A DNA stretch of 64,000 nucleotides from Candidatus Omnitrophota bacterium (GCA_023818965.1 JAMWCD010000008.1:47086-111085), one strand, 5' to 3'; shown: positions 1,176 to 41,751, numbered from the stretch's first letter. Numbers and translations are program-made. The notes: a model not told the origin generated them from the letters alone.

Positions 1176-2993
1176 ATGTTGAACACAGGATGGAAAAGAT
1201 TGATGTTTGCATTATTCATCTTATTTTTTCTTTCAAGTGCCTATGCTCAAATTACAGTAAATGCAGTAAGGACTTTTTCTCAATCAACATATTTGCCAGG
1301 ACAGAGTATTGATGTGACGCTGGCAATTGAAATCACAGGAATGCCAACAGCAGTAATTATTAATGAAACAATACCTGAGACATGGCAGATAACATCATCA
1401 AACCTGCCAATAAATAGTTTTATTGCTCCATCAACTTATAAATGGCTTCAATTTAATGCCACAGGAGTCTCATCAGTTGAAATAAAATATTCTGTAAGTA
1501 TTCCTGAAGATGCTACCGGTGATCAAAGTTTTACAGGACTCGTTGAATATCTTGAAAATGAAACGATGATAACTACTACCATTGGTGGGCAAACAACAAT
1601 TACACTACCACCATCAGGTTTTGGGATTTCCCCTCAATCACTTCATTTTGGAACAACTGATACATCAGCAACTGTTACACTGAGTAATCTTGGTGGTTCA
1701 TCTATTAACTGGACATCATCAATTGCTACTGATGATGGTATTACGGGCTGGTTGAAAGTTTCTCCAAATTCTGGAACGATTGCTGCTGGTTCTAATGCAA
1801 CTGCTACTGTTCAAATTACAAGGTCTCTTTTAACAACAGGTTCTCATACAGGTTCAATTACTTTTACCGCAAATACAAGTCCTGAAACTTCTATAGTTTT
1901 AAGAGTTTCCGCGATTGTTGGAAGTCCTTCTCCTGTTAGTAATTTCACTGCAAGTGCCCTTTTCAATTCAATACTTTTGTCCTGGCAGAATCCTTCAAGT
2001 TTCACTGGAACAATAATTTTCAGGAAAAATGTTCCACTTTCGTGGGATGATAAACCAGTTAATGGAACAAGTTATACGATTGGAAGTCGGCTTCCTGGCG
2101 GTGCAATATGCGTATTCAAAGATACTGTTAATCAGGACACATCATTTATTGATGATACAGCAGTAGAAACATCATATTACAGGATTTTCAGTTTTGATGA
2201 TGGAAGTGCCCCATCTTATTATCCTTTGTATTCTGAAAAATATTCTGATAGCCCCAGTACTGGAATAATACCTTTGCCGATTGAAGTGATATGGGAAGGA
2301 GATAATTTATTCACTGAAACTCAGGTTTACAATGACCCATATGGTTATAATCTTCTTGCTAAATTCAATACATCAGGAGTTAGTGAAGCAGACCCAAAAG
2401 TTTATGTTGGTTATGTGCCTCCAGATTATATCCCTCCAAAACTTACCTCTGTTACAGGGTTCAAAAACACTTATTTATTGAGTTCAAACTTTACTCTAAA
2501 TCCTGATGATACTGTTGACATAAGAATACCTGTGCGACTTGATGAACTGGCAACAGAAGAAACAAGCGTGACTCTGCATAAGACCCATGTTTATCACTGG
2601 CCTGGTGCAAATAATAAATGGGAAGACATTACATCTCAGGTGATAGAAAGAAATCTTAGCCAGATGTATATTACTGTTCGATTAAATGGAAATCAATTAA
2701 AGGGAAATGACTATTTCTCACTCGGCATACCACAGCCCTCTGTAGGTTCAGGTGGCGGTTGTTTTATTGCAACTGCTGCTTATGGAACACCATTTGCGAA
2801 GGAAATTAATGTTTTAAGGAAATTCAGAGACCAGAAACTTTTAAAAACAAAAATGGGAAGTGCCTTTGTAAGATTTTACTATAGACACAGTCCACCAATT
2901 GCAAGTTTTATCAAGGATAAGCCAGTGTTAAGAGCATTTGTGAGAGGAATTTTAAAGCCCATTGTATGGCTTTGCGGGAAATTTGTGGTTTAG
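1176..2993 (+). CDS. secreted surface protein: DUF11-like domain, FN3-like module, CFIATAA-type C-terminal anchor domain
   Basis: Signal peptide 'MLNTGWKRLMFALFILFFLSSAYAQ'. 'ETIPETWQIT...YKWLQF...IKYSVSIPEDATGDQSFTG' matches the recurrent DUF11-like family. An FN3-like 'LLSWQNPSS' follows. The C-terminus 'GSGGGCFIATAAYGTPFAKEINVLRKFRD...YYRHSPPIASFI' is shared with the next gene. Confidence 0.7.
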   Translation: MLNTGWKRLMFALFILFFLSSAYAQITVNAVRTFSQSTYLPGQSIDVTLAIEITGMPTAVIINETIPETWQITSSNLPINSFIAPSTYKWLQFNATGVSSVEIKYSVSIPEDATGDQSFTGLVEYLENETMITTTIGGQTTITLPPSGFGISPQSLHFGTTDTSATVTLSNLGGSSINWTSSIATDDGITGWLKVSPNSGTIAAGSNATATVQITRSLLTTGSHTGSITFTANTSPETSIVLRVSAIVGSPSPVSNFTASALFNSILLSWQNPSSFTGTIIFRKNVPLSWDDKPVNGTSYTIGSRLPGGAICVFKDTVNQDTSFIDDTAVETSYYRIFSFDDGSAPSYYPLYSEKYSDSPSTGIIPLPIEVIWEGDNLFTETQVYNDPYGYNLLAKFNTSGVSEADPKVYVGYVPPDYIPPKLTSVTGFKNTYLLSSNFTLNPDDTVDIRIPVRLDELATEETSVTLHKTHVYHWPGANNKWEDITSQVIERNLSQMYITVRLNGNQLKGNDYFSLGIPQPSVGSGGGCFIATAAYGTPFAKEINVLRKFRDQKLLKTKMGSAFVRFYYRHSPPIASFIKDKPVLRAFVRGILKPIVWLCGKFVV

Positions 2994-3125
2994 TTTCTTT
3001 GAAAATTTCTTAGTCTTTTCCTCCTCCATTCTCCCCCTTTTTACAAAGGGGATCTAAGGGGGATTTAAGGTAGTTTCTCCCTTTTCCAAAGGGAGATGCA
3101 AGAGGGATTTTGAATGTAGAAGGTT
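2994..3125. repeat. G-rich palindromic repeat array (families F1, F2)
   Basis: Units 'tctccccctttttacaaaggggatctaagggggattt' and 'gtagtttctcccttttccaaagggagatgcaagagggatttt'. Confidence 0.8.
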
Positions 3126-3161
3126 AACAGAAATTTTTGATTGTTAAAGGAGAAGCATAAT

Positions 3162-6100
3162 ATGAAAATCAGGAATTTAATTTTATCACTTGTTTTGACA
3201 GGCATTCTATTTACTCAGTACGCAAACTCAAAGGTAACGACTAATTCTGTAAGGTCATATGTTGTTGCCAATCAGGGAATTCTTCCGAATACAAATAGCG
3301 TTCCGCATTCGCCATACAGTCAGGTAATCGGTAGAAATGCAATTGGTGAGGGATACATTATAATTTTTGGTATGAACCTTGCCTCAGATTCTGGTGCGAC
3401 GAGTCCGCAACGTCTTGTCAGTGTAACATTAACAATGGCGCCAACACCTGGATTTGATGTTGACTCGTCTGTTATTATCGATCGTTCTGGAACAATTCTC
3501 GGTGTTACAGGTGGAGTTGGAACAATAACGATACCTGCCGGACGCAGGCCAATATTACCACCTGATGATACTGGTGGATATGCTGGAGATGATTTTTTTG
3601 TTGCGATAAGAACATCTGATAATTGTCTTGATGGCAGCAGTGCAACTTTTTCTATTCCTGCACTTGGTGTTTCTGTTACTCCTGTTCTTGAAGGTGATGT
3701 AACCTGTCCAGGTGGAACCACTGTGGCAATAACGTGTGAAATGCTTATTGGCGACTTATTGCCTGAAGAATATGATAATGCTCATTCAATAGGAATACCT
3801 CAGTATCCTTCTTATTTTCAGTGGCAGCCAGGAGAAATGATAAGACCAAGATATGACCATATTCCATTTGATTATCAATATGCAATCAGTCCATTGACAT
3901 TGCCTACTGTTCCACTGATTCACAATGTTCCACAGGTTGTTCCCTGGGAGACACCAACAGCAGTTCTCGGAATTGCATGCGCTCAAAGAAATGTTACTCC
4001 GAGTGGGGATCCTGTTCCTGCGATTCAGGACCCAGGTGAAGGATTGAATTCAATTACCTTGACTATTACAGATGTTGGAGATAGTGATTTTGATCCGAAT
4101 AATTTTTTCAGAAATAGAGATATTACTTTTGTTAACCCTGAAAATCCATATTCTATCCCGGGTATCACGCTGTGGAAGGATACCAATAATAATGGAATTT
4201 GGGACCCAGGAGATACATTATTAGATTATCAAATGAGTCCTTTTACTCCAACAGGCAATGTTAGGGAATGGACAGTTTCTCTTTCTCCAGTATTAGGAGA
4301 ACCTGATACTATTGATGACCTCTGGGATGGAACTGGGGGAAAGGGGAAATACGATTATTTTATTGTAATCACAATTGCAAGTTCAAATGATTCAGGTACA
4401 CCCAATGTTTCAATTGGTGGTGACTTCAAAATATGGATACCACGAGGTGGTGTTTTGTTTGGTCCTCTTTCTTTTCCCCAGCGATATGCGGGAATATCTC
4501 AAGGACAGGTAAAAACAACTTATCACAATCTTTATGTTGAAAATATCTGCCAGTCATTTGTTGATCCAACAGATACAGGTGATGCACCTGATTTAACATC
4601 AAATGTGATTCCTGTCTTTGGTTTGAATATTGCTTCAGGACCAGCAAATCTTTTTCCGAATGAATACATACAGAGAGTCAGAATTGACCTTATTGCTTAT
4701 GAAAACATAGACCCTGATGATATCGCTCCATTGCAGGAAAACCAGTACTCTGGAATTACATTATGGCGAGATAACAAAAATCCGCCTGCACAGGTTTCAT
4801 CTGTCATAGCACTTGGCAATTTTGATAGTACCGATACATTTATTCCCTGTAGATTTAGCAGTAATCCATTTGGTCCTTATGATTTCCACTGGGCATCAGA
4901 TGGTTATGACCCATCAGTTGGTGCTTACAGATACCATACATATATGACAACATCAGGTTCTTTAACTGACACGGGCTATGTTTATTTTGATGACATTGAT
5001 CCTGATACTTCTACAGTTCACAGGGGAGATGATTTTTTCATTTGCTTAAGAACAAATAATACCCTTGCTTATGGTTCAAAATTCAGGATTCAGATACCGT
5101 GGAATGAAATCATACTTGAGGGAAGCAAACAAGCCAGGTCAAGTCACGAGTTTTTCTCAACACTTGTCACTGGAAATGTTTTTGCAAAAATCACGGGTCT
5201 TGTCAGTCAGGGAGCAACCATTGGCCCACAGAGTAGTCCAACGCCAGTAATGAAACTACAAATAAATGATAACAATTCAGGAAAAAATCCTTCTTTAACA
5301 GGGCTTACAGTTGAATTTTATAATCGTGGTGGATTTACTCTTGATGACCTTGCTCCATTTACCACGCTTTCTCCGTGGTATGAAGCAGGTACGAACTGGT
5401 ATAATATTACCAACTTCAGTCCTGATGCATTAAAACAATGTGGTGTTGTGATTTACAGGGGAACAGATGCTGGACCTGATTTGAATGACCCTGTGATAAT
5501 CAAAAGATATAAATTTTTAACTTCATCATGGTTTGATACACCCACGGGTTATGTTTTTGAATTTCAAAATCCTGTTTCAATTCCCTGTACTCTTTATGTT
5601 GTCATACGAACCTCATCTTCAATGAGTGCAGGCGATGCATTCAGTGTTGGTATTGTCGGATGGGGAGCAACTCAGATTGATTGGGATACCTGGGCATCAA
5701 GGGCAATTCCTGTTGTTGATAAAAATGGTGTTAAGAGCAATGCCTTTGTCAGAAAGGTCACAGAGCCGTTTAATTCAACGTTAGGTGGCACTCTTGATCT
5801 TTATGCTACACCAGGATTTGATGGAATTACGATCAACTGGGTAAACAGGACAAATGTCACACAAAATGAATTCATCAGTTATGAAATCTGGAGAACAGAT
5901 AGTATCGGTGGTGAAACAGATATAACAAGAATTTCAGTTCCAGCAGGTTGGTCTGCAACTTCATATTTTGAAGCAGTTTCAAGGCAGGGTACAGGTGGAC
6001 TTCTTGAAGGAGTAACTTATAATTATAGATTGGTTATGACTTATTCAAGGGCCGGGACAACTCAGACAGTTGTATCAAACAGGGTTAGTGCGAAAGTGTA

Positions 6101-6791
6101 TGGTTTCCCGTACAATATGAGACCATCAAAACCAACAGCAGTTGCTTCAACAAATGGAATTGCAATCTGGTTCAGGGATAATACTTATGATCCATACAAA
6201 GCAAATAGCTGGAGAATTCAAAGAACAATTTATGGTAGAAATGAGTTCACAGACATTACCACAGTTGATACAATCCCAACATTTTATAATCCATATCTTG
6301 ATAATACTGTTGCTTTTAATGTGATGTACCAGTACAGAGTGATTGCTCAGAGAGATGCCAATTCACCTGGGTCTGGAACTGTTGAATCTTATCCATCAGA
6401 CCCTTCAGACAGAACTGCAATCTATGGTACTGATCCTGGAACAGGTCCTGTAAATACACCAAGCGGTGGAGGTGGTGGATGCTTCATTGCGACTGCTGCC
6501 TTTGGAAGTCCTCTTGCGAAAGAAATTGAAATCTTACGACAGTTCAGGGATAGGATACTACTTGAATTTTCAGCAGGAAGAAAATTTGTTGCATGGTATT
6601 ATAGTCATAGTCCGGTTGTTGCTGATTACATCAAAAAACACTCTGCGTTAAAAATCATTGTAAGAATAACATTGTATCCATTGATTGCATTTGCATGGAT
6701 TGTGCTTCATAAAATTTTCCTTTATTTCACTGTAATTTTGTTGAGTTTGATTTTGTTGTTATTGATGAGAAGAAATTTCCTTCATCTTTGA
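3162..6791 (+). CDS. giant cell-surface protein (about 1209 aa) with FN3-like modules and CFIATAA-type C-terminal domain plus TM helix
   Basis: Long ORF. ATG 3162 is preferred over 3141 because AGGAG lies 8 nt upstream. N-terminal signal peptide. FN3-like 'ITINWVNRTNVTQNEFISYEIWRTD'. C-terminus 'GGGGGCFIATAAFGSPLAKEIEILRQFRDRILL...WYYSHSPVVADYI' followed by a hydrophobic helix. Confidence 0.7.
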   Translation: MKIRNLILSLVLTGILFTQYANSKVTTNSVRSYVVANQGILPNTNSVPHSPYSQVIGRNAIGEGYIIIFGMNLASDSGATSPQRLVSVTLTMAPTPGFDVDSSVIIDRSGTILGVTGGVGTITIPAGRRPILPPDDTGGYAGDDFFVAIRTSDNCLDGSSATFSIPALGVSVTPVLEGDVTCPGGTTVAITCEMLIGDLLPEEYDNAHSIGIPQYPSYFQWQPGEMIRPRYDHIPFDYQYAISPLTLPTVPLIHNVPQVVPWETPTAVLGIACAQRNVTPSGDPVPAIQDPGEGLNSITLTITDVGDSDFDPNNFFRNRDITFVNPENPYSIPGITLWKDTNNNGIWDPGDTLLDYQMSPFTPTGNVREWTVSLSPVLGEPDTIDDLWDGTGGKGKYDYFIVITIASSNDSGTPNVSIGGDFKIWIPRGGVLFGPLSFPQRYAGISQGQVKTTYHNLYVENICQSFVDPTDTGDAPDLTSNVIPVFGLNIASGPANLFPNEYIQRVRIDLIAYENIDPDDIAPLQENQYSGITLWRDNKNPPAQVSSVIALGNFDSTDTFIPCRFSSNPFGPYDFHWASDGYDPSVGAYRYHTYMTTSGSLTDTGYVYFDDIDPDTSTVHRGDDFFICLRTNNTLAYGSKFRIQIPWNEIILEGSKQARSSHEFFSTLVTGNVFAKITGLVSQGATIGPQSSPTPVMKLQINDNNSGKNPSLTGLTVEFYNRGGFTLDDLAPFTTLSPWYEAGTNWYNITNFSPDALKQCGVVIYRGTDAGPDLNDPVIIKRYKFLTSSWFDTPTGYVFEFQNPVSIPCTLYVVIRTSSSMSAGDAFSVGIVGWGATQIDWDTWASRAIPVVDKNGVKSNAFVRKVTEPFNSTLGGTLDLYATPGFDGITINWVNRTNVTQNEFISYEIWRTDSIGGETDITRISVPAGWSATSYFEAVSRQGTGGLLEGVTYNYRLVMTYSRAGTTQTVVSNRVSAKVYGFPYNMRPSKPTAVASTNGIAIWFRDNTYDPYKANSWRIQRTIYGRNEFTDITTVDTIPTFYNPYLDNTVAFNVMYQYRVIAQRDANSPGSGTVESYPSDPSDRTAIYGTDPGTGPVNTPSGGGGGCFIATAAFGSPLAKEIEILRQFRDRILLEFSAGRKFVAWYYSHSPVVADYIKKHSALKIIVRITLYPLIAFAWIVLHKIFLYFTVILLSLILLLLMRRNFLHL

Positions 6792-7198
6792 AAATTTTAT
6801 TTCAATTCCCCTTTTAATTTTCAGGGGGACTACGGGGGATTTAAGTAGTTTCTCCCTTTTTTAAATTCTTCTTTCATCCTCCCCCTTTGTAAAGGGGGAC
6901 CACAGGGGGATTTTAAAAGTAGTTTCTCCCTTTTTAAAGGGAGATGCAAGAGGGATTTTAGCCCATCCTTTTGGTTATTCTTTGCCTCGTTTCCTCTCCC
7001 TTGAGGGGAGAGGACAAAAGGTGAGGGTGGCTGTGTAGGAGAATAACCTCCCCTTGCATCCCCTCCTTTCAGGAGGGGAAAGAGGGGAGGTGGCAAAGGG
7101 GGACTACGGGGGATTCAAAAGGAGGGAGAGCAGGAGGGAAAGAGGGGAGGTGATAAAGAGGGATGCAGGCGGATTGAAATAGCGCGATGCAATATTTC
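6792..7198. repeat. palindromic repeat array (F1, F2, F4) including a 140-bp composite unit duplicated at 26718-26860
   Basis: 'agcccatccttttgg[tc]tattctttgcctcgtttcctctcccttgaggggagaggacaaaaggtgagggtggctgtgtaggagaataacctccccttgcatcccctcctttcaggaggggaaagaggggaggtgg' is near-identical at both loci. Confidence 0.85.
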
Positions 7199-8143: not shown

Positions 8144-9046
8144 ATGAAAAAAATATTTGTTTTCGGATTGTGTGTTTTCATTATCGCAGGTTGTGGCAAA
8201 AAACAATCTCCAGTCCAGCAGATGCAGAAGCCACCTGTTTCTTCAGAAACACAGATTATTCAGACAACAAAAACTCAACCAAATATTACTTCCTCAAAGC
8301 CATTGTATCCATCAAGAAAAGAAGAACAAAAAGTAACACCTGAATGGATTAAAAAACTTGTTAGTATTCACAATCAACAATACCAGCAGTGGCAGGAAAA
8401 ATCATCAACTGAAACATCATCTGTTTTGATTGCTTCTTTAATTTCATCAAGTGTAGTTCCATCCTCTCCATCACCCACCAGTTCACCTTCAATTCCAGCG
8501 TCAGGTGGCTCTGTTTCACAGCCATATTCGCCAATTATCAGGCAACCTCAAGCAATGCCATCGGTTTCAACTGCTTCAGGAAGACCTTCTTCAGGGATAA
8601 TCTCTGCTGCGGTATCAGGTAGTTCCTCTGGCACAGCACCACAACCTGGTTCTGGAGGAACAAATCCACCGCAGGATCAGCAACCTCCATCACCAGAAAC
8701 ACCACCAGAACAGCCACAGCAATCATCAGGTGTATCTGTGACAAGGTCAATTCAATCATCATCAGGTAGTGCCTATGTAAGGTTGGATGTTAAAGTCACT
8801 GATAACAGGGTCAATGGAATTATTGTGAGTGAAAACATTCCTGATGGATACCAGTTAATGACTTCGTCTCCAGCAATTTCAAAGAGAGTTGGAAACACAG
8901 TTAAATGGCTTTTTTATGGAACAAGTTTAACTGACCAACTTATCACGTATGAAATTAAAGGGACAGGAAAAGCAACCATTTCAGGAAGTTTCAGTTCAAG
9001 CACTGGAAGCGGAACAATAACAGGTGATTCTCAAATAGGTCAGTAG
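8144..9046 (+). CDS. lipoprotein with Pro/Ser/Gln-rich linker and C-terminal DUF11-like domain
   Basis: Lipobox 'FIIAGC'. Low-complexity PS-rich middle. 'ENIPDGYQLMTSSP...VKWLFYG...ITYEIKGTGKATISGSF'. Confidence 0.7.
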   Translation: MKKIFVFGLCVFIIAGCGKKQSPVQQMQKPPVSSETQIIQTTKTQPNITSSKPLYPSRKEEQKVTPEWIKKLVSIHNQQYQQWQEKSSTETSSVLIASLISSSVVPSSPSPTSSPSIPASGGSVSQPYSPIIRQPQAMPSVSTASGRPSSGIISAAVSGSSSGTAPQPGSGGTNPPQDQQPPSPETPPEQPQQSSGVSVTRSIQSSSGSAYVRLDVKVTDNRVNGIIVSENIPDGYQLMTSSPAISKRVGNTVKWLFYGTSLTDQLITYEIKGTGKATISGSFSSSTGSGTITGDSQIGQ

Positions 9047-9176: not shown

Positions 9177-9212
9177 TTGACACCGTCCAATATTTTGATT
9201 ATTATATTGTCA

Positions 9213-9665
9213 ATGGACGAGAATAAAATTGAATTCTATCGCGGAATTCGTTTGGCTGTCGTTATACTTTGTCTTTTCTTTTTTACTCACTCAACAGCAA
9301 TTCAGGGATTTTTGAAACTTCCTGATAATCCTGCCATAAGAAAATTACCTGAAAAATACAGGGGCGGAGAAATTATTGTTGTTACAATCAATGTCAATCC
9401 ATTTCTTCCAGCAGGCACCAAAATCATAGAAAAAGTTCCTGATGGCTGGGACCTTGTTGCAGCAAATCCTCCTCTTGCAGAGCAACCATTTAGAAATATG
9501 TATGTCTGGAAAATTCCCAGAAAGGGAGAAGTGTTGACATCAATAAAATATGCAGTTTCCATTCCACAGGGAAATATTTCAAGGAAGGAATTTACTGGTT
9601 ACATTGATATTGGAAAAAGTATCCGATTAACAATATCAGGAGACAGACACATATGGAGCGAATAA
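9213..9665 (+). CDS. small secreted DUF11-like domain protein
   Basis: The ORF track starts at TTG 9177, but that TTG is the -35 hexamer of a TTGACA-17-TATTAT promoter. ATG 9213 gives 'MDENKIEFYRGIRLAVVILCLFFFTHS'. 'EKVPDGWDLVAANP...YVWKIP...IKYAVSIPQGN...FTG'. Confidence 0.6.
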   Translation: MDENKIEFYRGIRLAVVILCLFFFTHSTAIQGFLKLPDNPAIRKLPEKYRGGEIIVVTINVNPFLPAGTKIIEKVPDGWDLVAANPPLAEQPFRNMYVWKIPRKGEVLTSIKYAVSIPQGNISRKEFTGYIDIGKSIRLTISGDRHIWSE

Positions 9666-10138
9666 AAATTTCAATGTTTGTGATGATGATATTTATTTTT
9701 CTTTCAGGTTGTGTCTCAACTCAGGAGAAAAAAGTTGGTCCAGTTGTGCAGCCAGAAAAAAGCCAATCAAAAAACTTGGAAGTTAAAACAATGATTACCA
9801 CAGCCACAAGATTTTTACCTGAGTTCTGTCAACCAGGTGAAACAATTAAAGTGAAAATTGATATTGTGCCATTAAAACAAACCAATGGTGTTATTGTAAC
9901 TGAAAAAATCCCTGAGGGCTGGAAAATTGTAAAGGCAGAACCTGTAATTTCAAAAGTGATGCCTGATGGTTCATACAAATGGCTTCAATGGGGACAGGAA
10001 GTTACTCCATTTACAATTATCTATGAAGTAAAAGTCCCTGAAACAGCAAAAGGAAAGTATAATTTTGAAGGCACAATCACGACATATCGCGAAGGAGATA
10101 TTGAAATTATTGGTGCAAACTGTATCACAGTGAAATGA
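9653..10138 (+). CDS. lipoprotein with DUF11-like domain
   Basis: Lipobox 'FLSGC'. 'EKIPEGWKIVKAEP...YKWLQWG...IIYEVKVPETAKGKYNFEGTI'. Confidence 0.75.
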   Translation: MERIKISMFVMMIFIFLSGCVSTQEKKVGPVVQPEKSQSKNLEVKTMITTATRFLPEFCQPGETIKVKIDIVPLKQTNGVIVTEKIPEGWKIVKAEPVISKVMPDGSYKWLQWGQEVTPFTIIYEVKVPETAKGKYNFEGTITTYREGDIEIIGANCITVK

Positions 10139-10556: not shown

Positions 10557-13500
10557 ATGAATAAGAAGTTTTTATTTCTACTGTCATTTCTTTCAGGAAT
10601 TTTCCTGACATCCGCTGCATTTGGTGCTAAGCCGAGTCAACCTGGTGTTCTTGGGCACGCAGGAAATACCACAAGTTCTATCACCTGGATTTGGACTGAT
10701 AATTCTAATAATGAACAGGGTTTCAGGTGTTATGAATGGTACTGGGATTCAAATTTGAAAAGATACGTCAGGAGTAATAACCCTGTCTGGTCGGTTAATG
10801 CCAATATTACTTCTTACACAGAAACAGGTCTTGCACCAAATACCCAGTACAGACGAGTGATTGTTGCCTGGAATACTGATGGAGAAAGCCCACAGGCATT
10901 ATATGATTCTACCAGGAATCAATATTATTTCCGTTCTGACCCACCTGATTATCCAAAACCCGACTTTCTTGTCGCTTGTTATACCAGCATTGAGCCACCA
11001 GCAGGTCTTGAATTTGGTCCAAAAGGAGTTAATGAACTGACAGTGAGATTAAAAGACCCTGTTCCATCTAATTTGATGAGTAGTGGTTCTGTTTACGGCT
11101 ATTTCAATCCAAACGATTCAGGCTTCTGGATTGAAGATATAACAATTGGCACACATAAATCCGGTTGGTGGAAGGATAACAATGACTATGACCCATTAGG
11201 ACCGATGACAGGTTTTCCCCTTGGTGCAATAAATTGGGACAAATACCTTAAAAATGGTCCTGCCAGTTATAACTCTTCAACAGGACAATATTCTTCAAAC
11301 CACGTTTGGAAATACTGGTGTGTTGAAAACCTTGACCCTAATACTCCTTATAGTTTCAGGGCAAAGGCAAGAAATGGTGATATGGATGAAACTGCATGGT
11401 GTCCGCCGAGTCAGGAAGTATGGACTTTACCAAAGAGACCCCTTATTTCTTGCGACCAGGAAATTAATAAGTGTTATGACCCTGGTACAAAATTTACTTT
11501 TACAAGTTTAATCCCATTTGGAATTGGTTCTGTTGACCACTATCATATTAAATGGACAACAGACCAAACAGCAAACCCTTCTGAAGAAGACACAAAGTGG
11601 GGGACAGGTCTCTGGATTATTACTGAAAACCGGCTTTCTGATTTTTATCTTGTTATAAAATCTCATAATTATCAGCACGAAGAAACAATAACCTATGACA
11701 TTGATGGTTCTACGGTTCTCGGTTTTACCTATGTTGTAAACAGGACAACAGGAGCCACGCGCACGGATTATAACTATCCGGTTCGCAATGAAAATATTGT
11801 TACTATAGGTCCATTCAAAATTGGTTATGAAGTAGAAGGAAAAGTAACAATCAGTGGTGGAACTGGTTCATATACTGATGTTGTTGTTCATTGTGGTGGT
11901 TACACAACAAAATGCGATTCCGAAGGCAAATATAAATTTAAGAACTTACCACCTGGTACCTATGACCTGTATCCTGAACTACCTGGTTATAGAATTGCCT
12001 GGCCTGTTGATAATGCAGGGCACTATTCAGTAAAGGTTGGACCTGCCGCCACAGGTAAGGACTTTACTCTTGCTTACAAAAACACCTATACCATTGCAGG
12101 AAAAGTAACTCTTGTTGGTGGCTCTGGTGATGTAAAAGGTGTTACAATCACCTGCGGAAGTTATACCCCTGTTCATCCTGATGCAAATGGTAATTTCTAC
12201 ATTCCTGGTGTTTTTGCAGGAACATATAAATTAAAGGCAACATTTTCAGATGCGGATTATACTTTAACTTTCCCTGCCAATGGAGAATACACTGTTTCTG
12301 TTGGTCCTGATGCCACAGGTAAGGATTTTGTTTTCACATATACTGCAGGTGTTGATGTTGCGAAAATTTCAGGAACAGTAAAACTTATTGGTGGCTCAGG
12401 AGACCCAACAAAAGCAACTGTTTACTGTAAAAATTTAACAACAAACATTACTGGTACGACTGCTCCTAAGAACACAGGTTCTTATTCCTTCAAAGACCTT
12501 CTAAAAACCAATTCTTATGAACTCTGGGTTAAAATGGATGGCTACAAAACAACATTACCTGTTTCAGGTAAATACAGGATAGATAACCTTCAAACAGATA
12601 CACAACTGGATTTTGAAATGACCCCTATTTCCTATTACAGCATTAGCGGAAAGGTTCAAGTTTCTGAAGGGGTCATCACACCACCTGATACAAAGGTTCA
12701 CTGCGATTGTCTCACAGATACAAGCATTGCCTTTGCTCTTAATCCTGACAATGATGGTACATACAATTTTAGCAGTGTCCCTGAAGGTAGTTACAGGGTC
12801 TGGCTTGAAATTCCATCCGGCTATAAAATCACAAATCCTGCTTCAATCAAATATGAGCCAATTGTTGTTGGTCCTGATGCAAGCGGCAAAGATTTTCTTG
12901 TTGAACCAATAGCGAAATATTCTCTTTCAGGAAAAGTTACCCTTTTCGGTGGTACCTGCACTCCACGTGAGGCACTTGTTGTCTGCAGTTATTACAACAG
13001 CATAAAAAAGGAATACATTACTTTTACCACTGTTCCTGATGCTAATGGCAATTACAAATTTATCAATCTTGTACCAGCCAGTTACACTGTTTCAGTAAGT
13101 TTAACAGGTTATAATCCTGTATCTCCAGCAAAAGGTTATTATACAGTCACAATTGTCAACATGGATATTACAGGAAAGGACTTTTATCTTGCGAGTTATG
13201 CCATTAAAGGAACAGTGACAATTGCAACCCCGGGTCCTGAAAAAATAACAGATGTCACAATTATTTGTTCAGCCACAAGTAATAATCCTGATATTCCGAA
13301 TGTTTATGTTGTTACACATCCTGATTCTAATGGAAACTATGCTTTCTATAATCTTGTTCCCTCAGCAAAACTTGCAAATCCTGCTGGTGGAAATCCAGTA
13401 CCTTACAGGGTTGAAGTAAAACTTGCTGGCTATGGCTGTATTTCTCCGGCAAGCGGTTATTATGATGTAACAATCACGAACAAAGATGAGATAAGAAATT

Positions 13501-16277
13501 TCATCCTTGCAACATACTCAATTTCAGGAAAAATTTCCCTTTATTCAGGTTCAGCTGATTTAACAAAGGCAACTGTTACTGCTGCAAAACTTGATAAACA
13601 GGGTGGAAATGAGATTGACTGGATTGTTGTTAATCCTGATGCCAATGGAAATTACAAGTTTGATAGAATTGTTCCAGGGAGTTATTACAGAGTCAGGGTA
13701 AAACTGGATGGATTTTATTCTATAAGACCAAATGAACAGGGTTCAAACTGGGGTTATGAACGTTACATCCCTCCATCACAAACAAATCTTGATTTTATTA
13801 TGATGCCAACAACGGCAACTGCGCCGACCTACACAATTTCAGGAAGGGTTACTGTCAATGGAGGAACAATAACACCTGACAAAGTAATGGTTCATTGCGG
13901 GGACTTAAAGACATACCCGAATTCCCTTGGTGACTATTATTTCAAAAATCTGAATTTAGGAACATATGATGTTTGGGTTGAACGACTTGGTTATAAAACA
14001 ATCAATCCAGCAACAAATGGTGGTCATTACTATGTCACAGTTGATGGTTCTGTTCCTGAAATAACAGGGAAGGATTTTACTATTATTCCTGAACCAGTTC
14101 CCACTTATAAAATCAGTGGGACTGTGACACTTGTTGGTGGAAGTGGCAAAATTACAGATGTTACTGTTCATTGCAACACTCTCACTGCAACACCTGATAA
14201 TCAGGGGAAATACGAGTTTAAAAATCTTCCAGCAGGCAGTTATGAACTCTGGGTAGAACTTGAAAAATACGAGACATCAAATCCAGGTGGTTCTGGAAGA
14301 CAAACAGTAAAACTTTATGACAGGGATATTGCAGGTGTTGATTTTACATTGAAGGCAATCCCAACATATTCAATTTCAGGCACAGTCACAATCACTGATG
14401 GCGATGTTACACAGGTCAGCATCATTTGTAGTTCAGGTGCCACAGTTCATCCTGATATTTACGGAAGATACAGAATAGATGAACTTCTTGCAGGTAATTA
14501 CACTGTGCATGCTGAAATGCCAGGATTTATTGTGATAAAACCCACAAACAATCTTTACAGTGTAAAACTTGGTCCAAATGCAGACAAATGTGATTTTACT
14601 CTTGTTAAATATTACACAATTTCAGGAAGAATAACACTTAGTGGTGGAACAGGCGATGTCAGGAATGTTGTTGTTAAATGTGGAACGAGTACCTTGAAGG
14701 CAACCCCGGTTGTTTATGTGACCGCCACTGGCGACAAATACCACAGGGGCAACTGTTCCTACTTATGGGGCAGCAAAATCGAGAAGACGCTCGAAGAGGC
14801 TATCAGTGAGGGCTATACACCGTGTTCTGTCTGCAAGCCGTTAACCATTGACGAGGGTAAGTATGAATTCACCTATCTTCTTCCTGGAATTTATGATGTC
14901 TCTGCAACCCTTGATGGCTATGCTGTTGATAATCCTGCTTCTGGTTCATACAAAATTACCCTTGGTCCTGATGCAAACCTGACAAACTTCAATTTCATTG
15001 CAACAACATTACTCTCTGTCTCAGGAAAAGTAACAATTATGAATGGACCAGGGCAGATGAGTGATGTTAGTGTTTCAATTGCAGGGCTTACAACAAAACC
15101 GGATGCAAATGGAAACTATACAATTTCAGGAATTTCACCAGGAACCTATGATTTAACAGCACAACTTACTGATTACACAGTTGTTGCTCCATCAGCAGGC
15201 AAACACAGAATTACATTCACCAGAAGCAACCTGACAAATTATAACTTTTCTCTTTATGCTTATTCTGTTTCTGGTAAAGTAAAAATCATTGGTAATGCAG
15301 ATGTAGCAAATGTTGTTATTTCCTGTGGAGGTAAAACAACACATCCTGATGCCAGTGGAAACTATCAGATAATACCTCTTGCACCTGGTAATTATGAAGT
15401 TTTAGCAACATTAACAAACTATTCCACTGTCTTACCATCAGGAGACGGAAAATATAAAGTGACCCTTGGTCCTGATGCAACAAACAAAAACTTTACCTTA
15501 GCGACTTACTCAATTTCAGGAAATGTTTCATTCTATGCGGCAACTGGAAATGTTACAAATGTTGTTATTACTTTGAATGGTCCTGTGAACAGGACAACAA
15601 CTCCTGATTCAAAGGGGAATTATCAATTTACAGAAGTTCCTGGCGGTGTATATGAATTAACTGCAAATTTATCAGGATATACTGTTATCAGTCCATCAGG
15701 TGGAAAATACAATCTTACATTAAATTCCAATCTCACAGGTAAAAACTTTGTCCTGACAACATATTCTGTATCCGGGAAAATCAATCTTGCTGGAAGTCCA
15801 GTGCCAGTGACAAATGTAACAGTAACACTGACTGGTCCCACAGGAACAATTAACACTTCTCCTGATGAAAAAGGGTATTACAATTTTTCCACTTTGCCAG
15901 CAGGCGAATATACAGTGAGTGCTTCACTTTCCAACCACACTGTTGTTTCTCCTTCCAATGGCTCATTCACATTTAAGATACCACCATCAGGCACAGGAAA
16001 AGATTTTTCCATTGTTGCCTACTCAATTTCAGGTTCAGTAAGTGTTTATGATGCCAGTGGACCAGCAGGAACAATTGTTTACTGTCAGGGACCAATCGGT
16101 ACTCAACAGATTACAGTTGATGCCACAGGCAAATTTAAATTTTATCCACTTCCACGAGGCAACTATAGATTATGGGCTGAAAAACCTGGTTATAAAGTAA
16201 CATATCCATCTGACGGAGAATATAATTTCACGCTGGATAGCTGGGCAACAAGAAACTTTGTTTTGAAATTAAAATAA
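10557..16277 (+). CDS. giant secreted protein (1906 aa): N-terminal FN3-like region followed by about 19 tandem CarboxypepD_reg/Big-like beta-sandwich repeats
   Basis: Signal peptide, and SD 'caggagg' upstream. The unit 'Y[ST]ISG[KT]VT..GG.G....V.V.C.......PD.NGNY.F.NL.PG.Y.[LV]...L.GY' recurs about every 90 aa. One unit carries a Cys/His insertion (see findings). Confidence 0.85.
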   Translation: MNKKFLFLLSFLSGIFLTSAAFGAKPSQPGVLGHAGNTTSSITWIWTDNSNNEQGFRCYEWYWDSNLKRYVRSNNPVWSVNANITSYTETGLAPNTQYRRVIVAWNTDGESPQALYDSTRNQYYFRSDPPDYPKPDFLVACYTSIEPPAGLEFGPKGVNELTVRLKDPVPSNLMSSGSVYGYFNPNDSGFWIEDITIGTHKSGWWKDNNDYDPLGPMTGFPLGAINWDKYLKNGPASYNSSTGQYSSNHVWKYWCVENLDPNTPYSFRAKARNGDMDETAWCPPSQEVWTLPKRPLISCDQEINKCYDPGTKFTFTSLIPFGIGSVDHYHIKWTTDQTANPSEEDTKWGTGLWIITENRLSDFYLVIKSHNYQHEETITYDIDGSTVLGFTYVVNRTTGATRTDYNYPVRNENIVTIGPFKIGYEVEGKVTISGGTGSYTDVVVHCGGYTTKCDSEGKYKFKNLPPGTYDLYPELPGYRIAWPVDNAGHYSVKVGPAATGKDFTLAYKNTYTIAGKVTLVGGSGDVKGVTITCGSYTPVHPDANGNFYIPGVFAGTYKLKATFSDADYTLTFPANGEYTVSVGPDATGKDFVFTYTAGVDVAKISGTVKLIGGSGDPTKATVYCKNLTTNITGTTAPKNTGSYSFKDLLKTNSYELWVKMDGYKTTLPVSGKYRIDNLQTDTQLDFEMTPISYYSISGKVQVSEGVITPPDTKVHCDCLTDTSIAFALNPDNDGTYNFSSVPEGSYRVWLEIPSGYKITNPASIKYEPIVVGPDASGKDFLVEPIAKYSLSGKVTLFGGTCTPREALVVCSYYNSIKKEYITFTTVPDANGNYKFINLVPASYTVSVSLTGYNPVSPAKGYYTVTIVNMDITGKDFYLASYAIKGTVTIATPGPEKITDVTIICSATSNNPDIPNVYVVTHPDSNGNYAFYNLVPSAKLANPAGGNPVPYRVEVKLAGYGCISPASGYYDVTITNKDEIRNFILATYSISGKISLYSGSADLTKATVTAAKLDKQGGNEIDWIVVNPDANGNYKFDRIVPGSYYRVRVKLDGFYSIRPNEQGSNWGYERYIPPSQTNLDFIMMPTTATAPTYTISGRVTVNGGTITPDKVMVHCGDLKTYPNSLGDYYFKNLNLGTYDVWVERLGYKTINPATNGGHYYVTVDGSVPEITGKDFTIIPEPVPTYKISGTVTLVGGSGKITDVTVHCNTLTATPDNQGKYEFKNLPAGSYELWVELEKYETSNPGGSGRQTVKLYDRDIAGVDFTLKAIPTYSISGTVTITDGDVTQVSIICSSGATVHPDIYGRYRIDELLAGNYTVHAEMPGFIVIKPTNNLYSVKLGPNADKCDFTLVKYYTISGRITLSGGTGDVRNVVVKCGTSTLKATPVVYVTATGDKYHRGNCSYLWGSKIEKTLEEAISEGYTPCSVCKPLTIDEGKYEFTYLLPGIYDVSATLDGYAVDNPASGSYKITLGPDANLTNFNFIATTLLSVSGKVTIMNGPGQMSDVSVSIAGLTTKPDANGNYTISGISPGTYDLTAQLTDYTVVAPSAGKHRITFTRSNLTNYNFSLYAYSVSGKVKIIGNADVANVVISCGGKTTHPDASGNYQIIPLAPGNYEVLATLTNYSTVLPSGDGKYKVTLGPDATNKNFTLATYSISGNVSFYAATGNVTNVVITLNGPVNRTTTPDSKGNYQFTEVPGGVYELTANLSGYTVISPSGGKYNLTLNSNLTGKNFVLTTYSVSGKINLAGSPVPVTNVTVTLTGPTGTINTSPDEKGYYNFSTLPAGEYTVSASLSNHTVVSPSNGSFTFKIPPSGTGKDFSIVAYSISGSVSVYDASGPAGTIVYCQGPIGTQQITVDATGKFKFYPLPRGNYRLWAEKPGYKVTYPSDGEYNFTLDSWATRNFVLKLK

Positions 16278-16670
16278 ACCGGCTCTTTGACATTTATTGA
16301 TAGTTTCCCCCTTTTTCAACCTTCGCTCGTCTCCCCCTTTTGCAAAGGGGGACTAAGGGGGATTTAAGGTAGTTTCTCCCTTTTCCAAAGGGAGATGCAA
16401 GAGGGATTTTTATTTTTATGAAGAATCCACCCCCACCCTCCTTTAAAAAAGGAGTGAGAGAAAATTTCCCCCTTTAATAAATCCCTCCTCCGTCCTCCCC
16501 CTTTTTCAAAGGGGGACGAAGGGGGATTTTAAATGAGGGGGATTTAAGGTAGTTTCTCCCTTTTTTAAAGGGAGATGAAAGAGGGATTTTTATCCCCAGG
16601 GAAAATCCACCCCAACCCTCCTTTTTCAAAGGAGGGAGACCAGGAGGAAGCGAGGGGAGGTAGTACAGGA
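16278..16670. repeat. palindromic repeat array (F1, F2, F3, repeated twice over)
   Basis: Two successive F1-F2-F3 blocks. The ORF-track start of the next gene at 16575 lies inside this array. Confidence 0.8.
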
Positions 16671-18189: not shown

Positions 18190-18480
18190 TTCCAAATTTT
18201 TCGCCTTTCATAAAATCCACCCCAACTCTCCAAATCCCCCTTCCATTCCCCCTTTTGTAAATTCCTCCTCCAATTCCCCCTTTTCCAAAGGGGGACTAAA
18301 GGGGGATTTAAGCAGTTTCTCCCTTTTCCAAAGGGAGATGAAAGAGGGATTTTTATCCCCAGGGAAAATCCACCCCAACCCTCCTTTAGAAAAGGAGGGA
18401 GAAGAATATAATTTCCCCCTTTTCCAAAGGGGGACTAAAGGGGGATTAAAAAGGAGGGGAGCAAGGGGGATTAGAAAGGA
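18190..18480. repeat. palindromic repeat array (F1, F2, F3, F1)
   Basis: 'ttcccccttttccaaagggggactaaagggggatttaagcagtttctcccttttccaaagggagatgaaagagggattttt...ccaccccaaccctcctttagaaaaggagggag'. Confidence 0.8.
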
Positions 18481-21719: not shown

Positions 21720-21747
21720 TTGACAAAAATAAAAAATGGGGTACAAT
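21720..21747 (+). promoter_or_regulatory. sigma70-type promoter TTGACA-16-TACAAT, 6 nt before ATG 21754 (near-leaderless)
   Basis: 'cTTGACAaaaataaaaaatggggTACAATttttttATG'. Confidence 0.4.
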
Positions 21748-21753
21748 TTTTTT

Positions 21754-22656
21754 ATGGCTCGTCAATACTTTGCTGTGCGGGTGAAATTTGTTGCTACTTT
21801 TTTGTTTGTTTCCTTTTTCTCGTCCTTTGTTTTTGCTGAAAACACTGCAGTTAGAGACCTTCCTGAACAATACACGCCTGGCTCAAATATTAATGTTTCA
21901 ATTTCTGTGACTATGGACCCGCAGTATCCAACAAACGGTGTTGTTATAACAGAAAACCTGCCGCAGGGCTGGGCAATTGTTCAGTCAAATCCTTCCTGGA
22001 GCAAATACATCGCAAGCACAAACACCTATAAGTGGCTTTCATTTAGCAGTGGATCCATTGGTTCTTTTAATATCACATACACTCTTAGTGTGCCTGGCAA
22101 TGCTTCAGGTAATTATGAATTCACTGGTACAATTTATGATGGCTATTCAATAAGAGATATTACTGGTGATACAGTAATTTCTCAATTGCCACAGGTTGGT
22201 TCGCCTGTTTTTTCTCCGCAGCCCGGAAATTTTTATAATTTTTTTCCTGATGTAGAAATCGCCTGTTCCACAGAAAATGCTGTAATTCATTATACAATTG
22301 ATGGAAGTGAGCCCGATGAAAATTCTTCAGTTTATTCATTACCGCTGCATATTACACAATCAACAACAATAAAGGCGCGCGGATATAAACAGGGTATGTC
22401 GCCGAGTTCAATTGCACAGGGTGTTTACAATATTGAGATTCAAAAAGGAGATATCAACAGGGATGGAATAATTGATATTTCTGATGTGATTTTGTGTTTG
22501 AGGATGGCAGTTGAACTTGATATAACAGTTGACCAGCAGTCATACAGCAAGCCATATAATGATTGGTTGATTGCAATTGCTAATATGAATGATGACTCAG
22601 TAGTTGATATTTCAGATGTGATTAAGGTTTTGAGAAAGGCGATAGAGCTTGATTGA
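21754..22656 (+). CDS. secreted protein: DUF11-like domain, chitobiase/hexosaminidase-C-like (Fn3-associated) domain, C-terminal dockerin type I module
   Basis: 'ENLPQGWAIVQSNP...YKWLSF...ITYTLSVPGNASGNYEFTGTIY'. 'ACSTENAVIHYTIDGSEPDENSSVY...TTIKARGYKQGMSPSS'. The dockerin has two 'D-x-N-x-DG-x-x-D-x-S-D' segments: 'GDINRDGIIDISDVILCLRMAV' and 'ANMNDDSVVDISDVIKVLRKAI'. Confidence 0.75.
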   Translation: MARQYFAVRVKFVATFLFVSFFSSFVFAENTAVRDLPEQYTPGSNINVSISVTMDPQYPTNGVVITENLPQGWAIVQSNPSWSKYIASTNTYKWLSFSSGSIGSFNITYTLSVPGNASGNYEFTGTIYDGYSIRDITGDTVISQLPQVGSPVFSPQPGNFYNFFPDVEIACSTENAVIHYTIDGSEPDENSSVYSLPLHITQSTTIKARGYKQGMSPSSIAQGVYNIEIQKGDINRDGIIDISDVILCLRMAVELDITVDQQSYSKPYNDWLIAIANMNDDSVVDISDVIKVLRKAIELD

Positions 22657-26313: not shown

Positions 26314-26895
26314 AAGTAGATTTATCCACAACAACATTATTAAATCCCCCTTTTATAAATCCCGCTCGTTTCTTCCCCCTTTCATAAAACCTCCTCTTTT
26401 AACTTCCCCCTTTTTCAAATTCCCCTCCAATTTCCCCCTTTTTCAAAGGGGGACAAAGGGGGATTTAAATCCACCCCAGCCCTCCTTTAGAAAAGGAGGG
26501 AGAAAAATATAATTTCCCCCTTTTGTAAAGGGGGACGCAGGGGGATTAAAAAGGAGGGAGAGGAAGGAAGGTAAAGGGGACTAAAGGGGGATTGAAAAGT
26601 AGGGAGAAGAATATAATTTTCCCCTTTTTCAAATTCCTCCTCCAATTTCCCCCTTTCATAAAGGGGGATTGAGGGGGATTTAAGGTAGTTTCTCCCTTTT
26701 TCAAAGGGAGATGCAAGAGGGATTTTTAGCCCATCCTTTTGGCTATTCTTTGCCTCGTTTCCTCTCCCTTGAGGGGAGAGGACAAAAGGTGAGGGTGGCT
26801 GTGTAGGAGAATAACCTCCCCTTGCATCCCCTCCTTTCAGGAGGGGAAAGAGGGGAGGTGGTAAAGGTGGATTAGGGGGGATTTTAAGAGGCAAA
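26314..26895. repeat. large palindromic repeat array (F1, F3, F2, 140-bp composite, F4)
   Basis: Contains the second copy of the 140-bp composite unit at about 26718-26860. Confidence 0.85.
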
Positions 26896-26903: not shown

Positions 26904-27506
26904 GTGAATAAAATGATGAAAAAACTAATTTTTTTGGTTTCTTTAATTGGTTTTTCATTTTGCTTTTCAGAAACAACTGGAACAAGAACATTGCCTGCAA
27001 CCTATACTCCAGGTGGTATAATTACTGTTAGAATTAATGTCAGTGTTGACCCTGGTGTTACTGGCGTTATTGTGAAGGAATACCTGCCATCTGACTGGAT
27101 TGTTTCAGAGACAATGTCAGTGCCTGCACCAGCGAAACTTGAATTTGAAGGCGGCAACAGAATTTACAGCTGGTTGAAATTTGATTCTGGCGGTGTTTCT
27201 TCTTTTTCCATAACATACAAAATTTATGTTCCTTCTTCTGCAAGCGGCGATTATTCCTTTTATGGAAGTGTGTTAACTCTTGGTAATCCTGACGGCAGTG
27301 AAATATCAGGTGATAATATTCTTCGCGGTAATATTGGAGATATCAATAATGATGGAGTTGTTGATATTTCAGATGTGATTTTGTGTTTGAGGATGGCAAT
27401 TGGACTCAGTGAACCCGATATTGCGAAGGCAGATTTAAATAATGATGGAATCGTTGATATTTCTGATGTGATACTGATATTGAGAATTTCAATCGGGTTA
27501 TTGTGA
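26904..27506 (+). CDS. secreted DUF11-like domain protein with C-terminal dockerin type I module
   Basis: Signal peptide. 'EYLPSDWIVSETM...YSWLKFD...ITYKIYVPSSASGDYSFYGSV'. Dockerin 'GDINNDGVVDISDVILCLRMAIGLSEPDIAKADLNNDGIVDISDVILILRISIG'. Confidence 0.8.
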   Translation: MNKMMKKLIFLVSLIGFSFCFSETTGTRTLPATYTPGGIITVRINVSVDPGVTGVIVKEYLPSDWIVSETMSVPAPAKLEFEGGNRIYSWLKFDSGGVSSFSITYKIYVPSSASGDYSFYGSVLTLGNPDGSEISGDNILRGNIGDINNDGVVDISDVILCLRMAIGLSEPDIAKADLNNDGIVDISDVILILRISIGLL

Positions 27507-36951: not shown

Positions 36952-37777
36952 ATTTTTCAAAAAATCTGTTGAGAAAAACAGGGTCTGTCATGCAATCATT
37001 ATCTATGGTGGTTCATATGAAACAAGAAGCCATGCATCCCTGATTGCTGCAAAAATTCTTGAATGTCAGAACTCACCTGAAATTTGCGGAAAATGTTATT
37101 CATGTAGAACTATTGAATCAAAAAATTATCCTGACCTTCACATCATAAAACCAGAGAAAAGAAATCTATCCATTGATGAGGTCCGCTCGATTAAAGAACA
37201 GATGTATATAAAGCCATATCTTGGTAGATACAGAATTTTTGTCATTGAATCTGACTGGATGCAGGCACCTGCTGCAAACAGTTTATTGAAAATTCTTGAA
37301 GAACCACCTGCCTATGGAATTATAATAATTCTCACCCGGAATAATAAAAATTTTGTTCCTACAATCGTTTCCCGTGCAATAAATTTGAGATTGAACATTG
37401 AAATTGAAAATCTTGAGAAAGATAATTTTGATAGGATTCAAAACCTTATTAACTCAACAAATCAAAAGAAACTTGCACAGATGATTGAGATAGCAGGCGA
37501 AATCGCAAAAGATTCAACAAGGGAAGAGATTGAAGAAATCTTTGATACAATGATTTTATCAGCAAGGCACAACCTCCTTGAAAATATTGCAATTGGCGAA
37601 TCACCGTTGCACCAGAGTCAATCATCGGGTATAATTAAACTGGATGACTATAGGATACTAAGCAAAATTCTTGATAAAAGAGTTTATCTGAAGTTCAATG
37701 TAAACATCAGAATGTTTCTGGAAGTTCTGGCATTGTATATTTCTGTGCCGAAGTGGCGGAACTGGCAGACGCGCTAG
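36929..37777 (+). CDS. holB: DNA polymerase III delta-prime subunit
   Basis: 'HAIIIYGG', a zinc module 'CGKCYSCRTIESKNYPDLHII', and 'ILEEPP'. The 3' end overlaps tRNA-Leu by 31 nt. Confidence 0.8.
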   Translation: MNIKEITEFFKKSVEKNRVCHAIIIYGGSYETRSHASLIAAKILECQNSPEICGKCYSCRTIESKNYPDLHIIKPEKRNLSIDEVRSIKEQMYIKPYLGRYRIFVIESDWMQAPAANSLLKILEEPPAYGIIIILTRNNKNFVPTIVSRAINLRLNIEIENLEKDNFDRIQNLINSTNQKKLAQMIEIAGEIAKDSTREEIEEIFDTMILSARHNLLENIAIGESPLHQSQSSGIIKLDDYRILSKILDKRVYLKFNVNIRMFLEVLALYISVPKWRNWQTR

Positions 37778-41654: not shown

Positions 41655-41751
41655 AGTAAAATTATATGCTATGCACTGATTATTTCAAAATCATTGCATC
41701 TTAAAATTTTTAAAAATTGACGCAATCGCTATGATGTGGTTAATTATTCCT

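Follow-up and report, generated by a model that had tools for sequence, protein, structure and literature searches.

Two adjacent genes of an Omnitrophota bacterium encode otherwise unrelated proteins with CFI-box-CTERM (NF041770) tails, a candidate cell-envelope sorting module

Two unrelated proteins with one C-terminal domain

Within a 64,000-nucleotide stretch of DNA from a Candidatus Omnitrophota bacterium (GCA_023818965.1 JAMWCD010000008.1:47086-111085; the whole stretch is referred to here as the window), two adjacent open reading frames (ORFs) on the plus strand, ORF1 (1176..2993) and ORF2 (3162..6791), encode proteins whose bodies differ and whose C-termini look alike. This raises the question of what the common tail is, and whether it sorts or anchors the proteins that bear it. 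An earlier reading of the DNA made without database searches (the sequence-only reading) had described two giant proteins sharing a putative sorting or anchor signal, and had been unable to place its motif in a named class. Profile searches provide that name, as both tails are shown to be members of the curated family NF041770, CFI-box-CTERM.

ORF1 is 605 amino acids long in the ORF list, too short for the description giant to apply to both proteins, while ORF2 comprises 1209 amino acids from its ATG, or 1216 if an upstream TTG at 3141 is used. As P0049, a homologue 98% identical to ORF2, begins MKIRNLIL and thus at the ATG, the ATG is preferred, and the TTG is probably not the true start. When the two proteins were compared by BLASTP, residues 524-597 of ORF1 aligned with residues 1109-1182 of ORF2 with 40 of 74 positions identical (54%; E 8e-23), while the remaining segments all had E ≥ 0.39. 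The bodies are therefore unrelated and the common C-terminal domain is real, both as the sequence-only reading had proposed. At the DNA level, the window contains exactly two matches to the back-translated CFIATAA pattern (2760 and 6480), against none expected by chance; together with the E value of 8e-23, this rules out an origin of the likeness by chance or low complexity. A six-frame regular-expression scan of the window found no third carrier.

We scanned both proteins with hidden Markov models (HMMs), as the sequence-only reading had suggested. The tails match NCBIfam NF041770 (CFI_box_CTERM) end to end, covering all 69 profile positions at residues 529-597 of ORF1 (2760..2966; 97.1 bits) and 1114-1182 of ORF2 (6480..6686; 97.4 bits), well above the curated cutoff of 40 bits. 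No other NCBIfam family matched the tails or the full proteins at E ≤ 1, and Pfam gave no match on either tail. PEP-CTERM, GlyGly-CTERM, MYXO-CTERM, LPXTG and the C-terminal domain (CTD) of the type IX secretion system (T9SS) were each rejected as the identity of the tails, none having an HMM match at E ≤ 1. All 66 carriers from other genomes that were tested also matched NF041770. Structurally the tails of ORF1 and ORF2 do not differ from the family: the whole profile is matched, the domain is C-terminal, a Gly run comes before it and it starts with CFIATAA[YF]G. They are new members of a named family that was already catalogued.

Anatomy, fold and occurrence of the tail

The two window proteins, all of whose features lie on the plus strand, follow a common plan. 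ORF1 begins with a signal peptide, MLNTGWKRLMFALFILFFLSSAYA|Q (1176..1250), recognised by reading the sequence and by a crude signal-peptide scan. This is followed by a DUF11-like N-terminal domain (1263..1544; BLASTP among window proteins, with a DUF11 Pfam match on the paralogue at 21736..22656) and by a BACON_2/Ig-like domain at residues 150-235 (1623..1880; Pfam PF19190, E 8.9e-8). A Gly-rich linker, SGGG (2748..2759), directly precedes the invariant Cys that opens the CFI-box-CTERM domain, CFIATAAYGTPFAKEINVLRKFRD. The exact ORF1 protein is also present on a Logan contig of accession SRR30574052. In ORF2, the signal peptide MKIRNLILSLVLTGILFTQYANS (3162..3230) is kept in orthologues, and the body has no Pfam match. 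Among the 16 homologues of this body, those whose source is named come from Omnitrophica or Ratteibacteria, and all full-length members retain the CFI tail. The C-terminal part consists of a Gly5 linker (GGGGG; 6465..6479), the CFI-box-CTERM domain CFIATAAFGSPLAKEIEILRQFRD, a transmembrane (TM) helix, IFLYFTVILLSLILLLLM (6714..6767), that is an uncharged hydrophobic run, and a basic cluster, RR (6768..6773), which from the sequence and the family pattern is predicted to be a cytoplasmic stop-transfer signal. By the positive-inside rule, the RR pair would lie in the cytoplasm. The poly-Gly run and Cys in both proteins, and the hydrophobic tail with RR in ORF2, are readable in the sequence as originally described. 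GGG precedes the Cys in 105 of 145 top family members.

The segment after the Cys had been described as amphipathic and about 60 amino acids long. AlphaFold2 (AF2) models built on alignments of the homologues instead depict a folded domain of 69 amino acids with four helices. For the 113-amino-acid fragment of ORF2 (mean predicted local distance difference test score, pLDDT, 91.4; predicted template modelling score, pTM, 0.71), helices were predicted at 12-18, 24-35, 41-63 and 65-86, with a fifth helix at 89-112 that is the TM segment. The 85-amino-acid fragment of ORF1 (pLDDT 86.5) was modelled with helices at 10-16, 22-33, 39-60 and 63-84 and no fifth helix. Both tails are therefore modelled as one compact, all-helical four-helix domain beginning at the invariant Cys. 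When the two tails are aligned with 35 homologues, the residues C, F, I, A, T, A, A and G, and after them L, R, Y, S, P and R, are invariant, while R, D, L, G, F, Y, A, I, L and P are nearly so. The consensus of a larger sample of 289 sequences, itself partly selected by motif, is CFIATAA[YF]G[ST]..x.V.xLR.FRD..L....G..FV..YY..SPP.A..I.....LR...R..L.P. All 289 sequences of this sample have C, F, A, T and G unchanged, I3 and A7 are conserved in at least 99% (one and three exceptions, respectively), H54 is conserved in only 70%, and the mean net charge of the domain is +3.6. As helices 2-4 contain many variable polar positions, the bundle is likely water-exposed and globular rather than embedded in the membrane.

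The tail occurs in two forms. In the long form, to which ORF2 belongs, about 100-112 amino acids follow the Cys and include a TM helix, usually with RRR(R) at the end. The short form, represented by ORF1, has about 75-78 amino acids after the Cys and no TM helix, and typically ends in ...YGTPFAKEINVLR.[FW]RD. The Cys lies 77 amino acids from the C-terminal residue in ORF1 and 103 in ORF2, where the TM helix begins 78 residues after the Cys, past the folded domain. We also considered whether ORF1 had lost a TM tail beyond its stop codon; the downstream sequence contains none in any frame. A TM helix with RRR at the position homologous to that of ORF2 is found in about 80% of the sampled members and is absent from 57 of the 289 (about 20%). 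Two orthologues of ORF2, P0061 and P0064, keep the CFI box and lack the helix, and the TM helix is therefore facultative even within one orthologous family. Since the helix has been lost in this family while the bundle was retained, and since the short form must act without it, we infer that the bundle, and not the TM helix, is the conserved and functional core.

One further sequence touches on the ORF1 tail. Positions 1-440 of a 1.4 kb contig from the Joint Genome Institute (L097) correspond to window 2651-3010 and are near-identical in DNA to the end of the ORF1 body. There is one mismatch in about 136 nucleotides through the CFIATAAYG codons, after which identity falls abruptly to about 50% and the contig runs into a different, TM-bearing CFI tail and a different downstream gene (enoyl-CoA hydratase). 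L097 is either a chimeric assembly joined through the conserved motif or a real exchange of tail cassettes; both readings imply that a close relative or near-identical strain has another CFI-box gene.

A profile search of 1.84 billion representatives placed NF041770-type tails in 30,667 clusters (50% identity) at E ≤ 1e-3, and in 24,547 at E ≤ 1e-10. In the best 150 of the 30,667 clusters the match ends at or near the C-terminus, and the family-wide median distance from Cys to end is 103 amino acids. Species-representative genomes contain at least 600 matching stretches, 593 of which were confirmed. Results at the level of loci rest on the best 80 of these, which hold 87 genomic carriers and derive from Omnitrophota, Desulfobacterota, Geobacterales, Nitrospirota, Gallionella, Gammaproteobacteria, Chloroflexota/Dehalococcoidia, Firmicutes, Elusimicrobia, Spirochaetota, Myxococcota, Bdellovibrionota, Methylomirabilis and Dependentiae. 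Cultured strains among the carriers are Geomonas edaphica Red53, Geomonas silvestris Red330 and Spongiibacter marinus DSM 17750. The Cys lies 75-117 amino acids from the end in all but about 7 of the 87 carriers, the exceptions being five with longer C-terminal extensions and two cut off by the end of a contig. Seven of the 80 loci bear two carriers, as does the window, and two loci come from a single Smithella metagenome-assembled genome. An origin of the CFI box in phages was rejected, only 8 matches being present in 2.9 million viral contigs. In eight proteins that were examined (P0065-P0068, P0074, P0128, P0162 and P0197) a CFI box with TM helix and basic cluster is internal, being followed by a signal-peptide-like sequence and a second body, and some of these proteins end in a second CFI box. 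With a signal-peptide-like sequence after the internal box, they appear to be read-through fusions of tandem genes and were not taken as evidence against a C-terminal restriction of the domain.

A crude scan found an obvious signal peptide in at least 55 of 85 carriers, a count that is a lower bound given truncated or mis-called starts. Across 66 carriers the mean column identity over whole proteins is 8%, so that the bodies are unrelated, and their Pfam content is diverse. The bodies match choice-of-anchor families U (8), D (4), J (2) and Z (2), models of myxosortase- and rhombosortase-dependent M36 peptidases, an LPXTG-anchored peptidase family, S8 subtilases and GDSL lipases. In nearly every case the tail forms the very end of a protease, lipase or adhesin that bears a signal peptide, and the choice-of-anchor passenger families are ones that bear other sorting tags in other lineages.

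Sorting signal, anchor or docking module

Eight attributes of sorting signals that are C-terminal and tripartite have been set out by Haft (2023), and the CFI tail shows most of them. It is C-terminal, and it opens with a motif, CFIATAA.G, that is invariant or nearly so. As to the number of carriers per genome, gauged here from the window and individual loci, there are two in the 64 kb window and two per locus in seven loci, with a third implied by L097 in a near-identical strain. Signal peptides are found on both window proteins and on the carriers counted above, small proteins excepted (attribute 6). ORF1 and ORF2, like many other pairs of carriers, share the tail alone (attribute 7), and homologous bodies elsewhere have other anchors, as do paralogues within the window that end in dockerin-like modules (attribute 8). 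The terminal cluster of two to five basic residues (attribute 5) is RR in ORF2 and RRR(R) in most long forms, and is missing from ORF1 and the short forms. A TM helix directly after the motif (attribute 4) is not found, as ORF1 has none and that of ORF2 lies 78 residues on. The tail departs from the published description in three respects: about 60 folded residues stand between motif and TM helix, the helix is optional even among ORF2 orthologues, and no partner enzyme was found in the window or within ±10 kb of the 80 related loci.

The first and last of these departures count against a sorting role, as do several further results. Classical tripartite signals are much shorter than this tail, whose motif and TM helix stand about 75 residues apart, so that the geometry by which sortase-type systems cleave close to the membrane cannot be carried over directly. 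The 64 kb window contains no exosortase, rhomboid, CPBP or sortase gene, its other genes encoding surface proteins, GspC-like PDZ proteins, a pseudopilin, a radical SAM enzyme and housekeeping functions. When 1,055 ORFs of the 80 loci were clustered by BLAST, no non-carrier family turned up in more than 12 loci, and the families at the top were generic: ABC ATPases and transporters, histidine kinases, GspE and sigma-54 regulators. Of the membrane neighbours, 80 polytopic proteins were scanned against Pfam; their 25 most frequent families include no known sorting enzyme, and the commonest, an ABC permease, is present in 5. Neither AF2 model has a meaningful relative among solved structures, the sequence profile had no match among PDB chains, searches of the literature for 'CFI-box', 'CFIATAA' and 'CFIAT' found no relevant paper on the domain, and the NCBI product name of NF041770 does not contain the word 'sorting'.

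A further point on this side comes from small proteins of about 100-150 amino acids that carry a short-form CFI box and no signal peptide (P0002, P0003, P0010, P0023, P0045; L082 6001-6321; L085 2361-2777). Their N-termini are short and either acidic or zinc-ribbon-like, the latter in P0002, P0023 and P0045. The acidic family, P0010 and relatives, adjoins genes for Mre11/Rad50-like, ATP-dependent ligase and HEAT-repeat proteins in conserved synteny, a context that is probably archaeal. P0030, which begins MSCFIATAA, was set aside as a stand-alone domain, being a frameshift split of a DUF11 carrier. The tail of ORF1 is closest to the subgroup of small proteins without a signal peptide (68% identity to P0002). 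That short-form boxes sit on small proteins of this kind, nearest to the ORF1 tail, suggests that the bundle may have an intrinsic binding or assembly activity, and a tag coupled to Sec export is a poorer fit to the small carriers than a domain that binds or assembles by itself. The sorting or anchoring role proposed by the sequence-only reading thus stands in part. It is supported by a recognised '-CTERM' module in terminal position on signal-peptide-bearing and choice-of-anchor passengers, with most of Haft's attributes, and is weakened by the loss of TM helix and basic cluster in ORF1 and about a fifth of members, the missing partner enzyme and the small carriers.

Weighing these results, we favour with moderate confidence the explanation that the CFI module keeps or sorts exported enzymes and adhesins at the cell envelope. 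The module would be appended to such proteins for retention or sorting, as the counterpart of the PEP-CTERM, MYXO-CTERM, GlyGly-CTERM, LPXTG or T9SS C-terminal domains borne by homologous passengers elsewhere. From N- to C-terminus the architecture starts with a Sec signal peptide and a passenger that differs between carriers; a flexible run of Gly leads to the invariant Cys, which opens the motif CFIATAA[YF]G[ST] and with it a net-basic bundle of four helices and 69 amino acids, followed in ORF2 and about 80% of sampled relatives by a predicted stop-transfer TM helix and a short basic cluster. Export through Sec would leave passenger and bundle outside the cytoplasmic membrane, where in the long form the TM helix would tether both, with the RR in the cytoplasm, and in the short form of ORF1 the bundle would act by itself. 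The bundle, with its invariant motif exposed beside the flexible Gly run, would be the element that the partner recognises. Somewhat less firmly, the motif at the junction of linker and domain is probably the recognition site of a partner encoded elsewhere, and the Gly|Cys junction, for which lipidation or thioester-type processing had been suggested, is possibly a site of cleavage or lipidation. A precedent is MYXO-CTERM, whose Cys-containing signal is cleaved in a Cys-dependent manner by the CPBP protease myxosortase and is lipidated; Haft's myxosortase paper makes no mention of the CFI-box domain. A more specific proposal, which we offer only tentatively, is that a very widespread, as yet undescribed protein-sorting pathway uses the CFI box as its substrate tag. 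An enzyme whose gene lies elsewhere would act on the Gly|Cys junction, presented by the folded four-helix domain in place of a short motif next to the membrane, cleaving it and/or lipidating the Cys; the passenger would become covalently anchored at its new C-terminus, and the optional TM helix would merely raise the local concentration at the membrane.

Three other explanations have to be set against this. The absence of a partner enzyme near the 80 loci would be expected if the tail were an unprocessed, membrane-proximal anchor, in which the bundle is a stalk or juxtamembrane domain, the TM helix does the tethering without cleavage or lipidation, and short forms are released or loosely associated. 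The TM helix and basic cluster of some four-fifths of sampled members also speak for this, as does the fact that the domain by itself is predicted with confidence to fold stably. However, a passive stalk leaves unexplained why nine residues, CFIATAA[YF]G, are near-invariant across phyla save for the Y/F position, and why the TM helix was lost with retention of the bundle inside one orthologous family. In diderms, moreover, huge adhesin- or protease-like passengers fixed to the inner membrane would stay trapped in the periplasm, and we regard this explanation as rather unlikely.

Alternatively, the bundle may be a docking or oligomerisation module that binds a shared receptor, a second CFI bundle or an anionic polymer of the envelope, possibly through a disulfide at its single Cys, in the manner of dockerin-cohesin pairs or SLH domains and independently of Sec topology. 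Its presence on small proteins without a signal peptide and on TM-less proteins such as ORF1, its mean positive charge, the recurrence of tandem carrier genes in the seven loci and the window, and the dockerin-like ends that window paralogues bear in its place would all agree with such a role. Yet tandem pairs do not systematically combine a TM-bearing with a TM-less carrier, a consistent pairing being ruled out by L003, L027 and L054, where both have the helix, and by L037 and L073, where both lack it; nor is a candidate receptor gene conserved near the 80 loci. A docking or oligomerisation module seems improbable to us. Least credible is a self-cleaving module that performs an N-to-S acyl shift at Gly|Cys-Phe, as at the G|CF of Hedgehog/Hint proteins, and passes the C-terminus of the passenger as a thioester to an acceptor with no separate enzyme. 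The Gly-Cys-Phe junction after a flexible linker, which we take to resemble Hedgehog and intein sites, the invariant Thr four residues on and the lack of a partner in synteny fit this idea. Such cleavage is disfavoured because the CFI fold is helical, an all-helical domain of 69 amino acids against the roughly 150 amino acids of beta structure in Hint domains. There is also no Hint or intein match in Pfam or NCBIfam at E ≤ 1 and no conserved His in the expected pattern, H54 being too variable, which together make the self-cleaving module very improbable.

Neighbouring genes and comparison with known systems

The genes around ORF1 and ORF2 form a cluster of secreted proteins with beta-propeller, Ig-like and dockerin-bearing members. 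A DUF11-like domain of about 100 amino acids is common to six window proteins (1263-1544, 8144-9046, 9177-9665, 9653-10138, 21736-22656 and 26904-27506), of which ORF1 ends in a CFI box and those at 21736..22656 and 26904..27506 end in related dockerin/EF-hand-like modules. These paralogues present a 'choice of anchor' within one gene cluster. [quoted passage not shown] A 1906-amino-acid secreted protein (10557-16277) contains many CarboxypepD_reg/SdrD_B-like repeats and a Cys-rich insert (...GDKYHRGNCSYLWG...CSVCKP...), and has no CFI box. Further along lie a ShlB/FhaC-type TpsB transporter (56218-57906; POTRA and ShlB) and a repeat-rich region at 57.9-64 kb with no listed plus-strand ORF, most likely a giant TpsA-like exoprotein gene that extends past the end of the window.

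Between the genes, an intergenic repeat, AARGGRGAYNYRMRRGGGATTT, is dispersed in 22 copies where none is expected, 20 of them on the plus strand (3045-3110, 6823-7178, 9138, 10305, 16344-16589, 17568, 18288-18448, 26573-26725, 29805, 38040 and 45030 on the minus strand, and 54021-54288). The copies often form pairs, spaced about 44 nucleotides and situated immediately downstream of a gene; each has a TCCCCCTTT/AAAGGGGGA hairpin, and the repeat looks like a REP-like (repetitive extragenic palindromic) or terminator-like element. The 88-amino-acid ORF on the minus strand at 6830..7096 traverses these repeats and is probably not a real gene. The window also contains smpB followed directly by the tmRNA gene (41731-42548; Rfam, 149 bits) and a tRNA-Leu(CAG) at 37747-37831.

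Two hypothetical proteins of an Omnitrophota/Ratteibacteria-like organism can now be named as CFI-box-CTERM surface proteins, a gain in annotation. The domain tags tens of thousands of clusters that include proteases, lipases and adhesins of environmentally important anaerobes (Desulfobacterota, Geobacterales, Nitrospirota, Chloroflexota and Omnitrophota). Knowing whether the CFI box is cleaved, lipidated or docks would explain surface display in a large share of uncultivated bacteria, and would also sharpen the prediction of protein localisation in metagenomes.

The sequence-only reading had equated the architecture of the tail with that of PEP-CTERM, GlyGly-CTERM and MYXO-CTERM, an equation that does not survive the profile scan or the 69-amino-acid folded domain between motif and TM helix. 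MYXO-CTERM and the related JDVT-, Synerg- and CGP-CTERM, the signals of CPBP-family myxosortases, resemble it in several respects. As in the CFI box, an invariant Cys opens a C-terminal homology domain on unrelated signal-peptide-bearing passengers, most members adding a TM helix and an end rich in Arg, and some CFI passenger bodies match the M36 peptidase models that NCBI defines as myxosortase- or rhombosortase-dependent. In these signals, however, the motif adjoins the TM helix, whereas in the CFI box a folded domain of about 60 amino acids intervenes and the helix is optional; there is no HMM match between them and no CPBP protease in the window or flanks, and the phyletic spread of the CFI box is far wider. 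PEP-CTERM/exosortase and GlyGly-CTERM/rhombosortase resemble the CFI system in the C-terminal position of the tag, in having several carriers per genome or locus, in their unrelated signal-peptide-bearing passengers and, often, in the TM helix and basic cluster, but unlike the CFI box their tags are short, with the motif directly before the helix. The T9SS CTD, which is removed by PorU, did not match either tail as a model. It is nonetheless, like the CFI box, a folded C-terminal domain of about 70-100 amino acids on diverse secreted hydrolases and adhesins, the two differing in that the T9SS CTD is a beta-sandwich of Bacteroidota-type systems, whereas the CFI box is predicted to be all-helical and occurs in monoderms, diderms and probably archaea.

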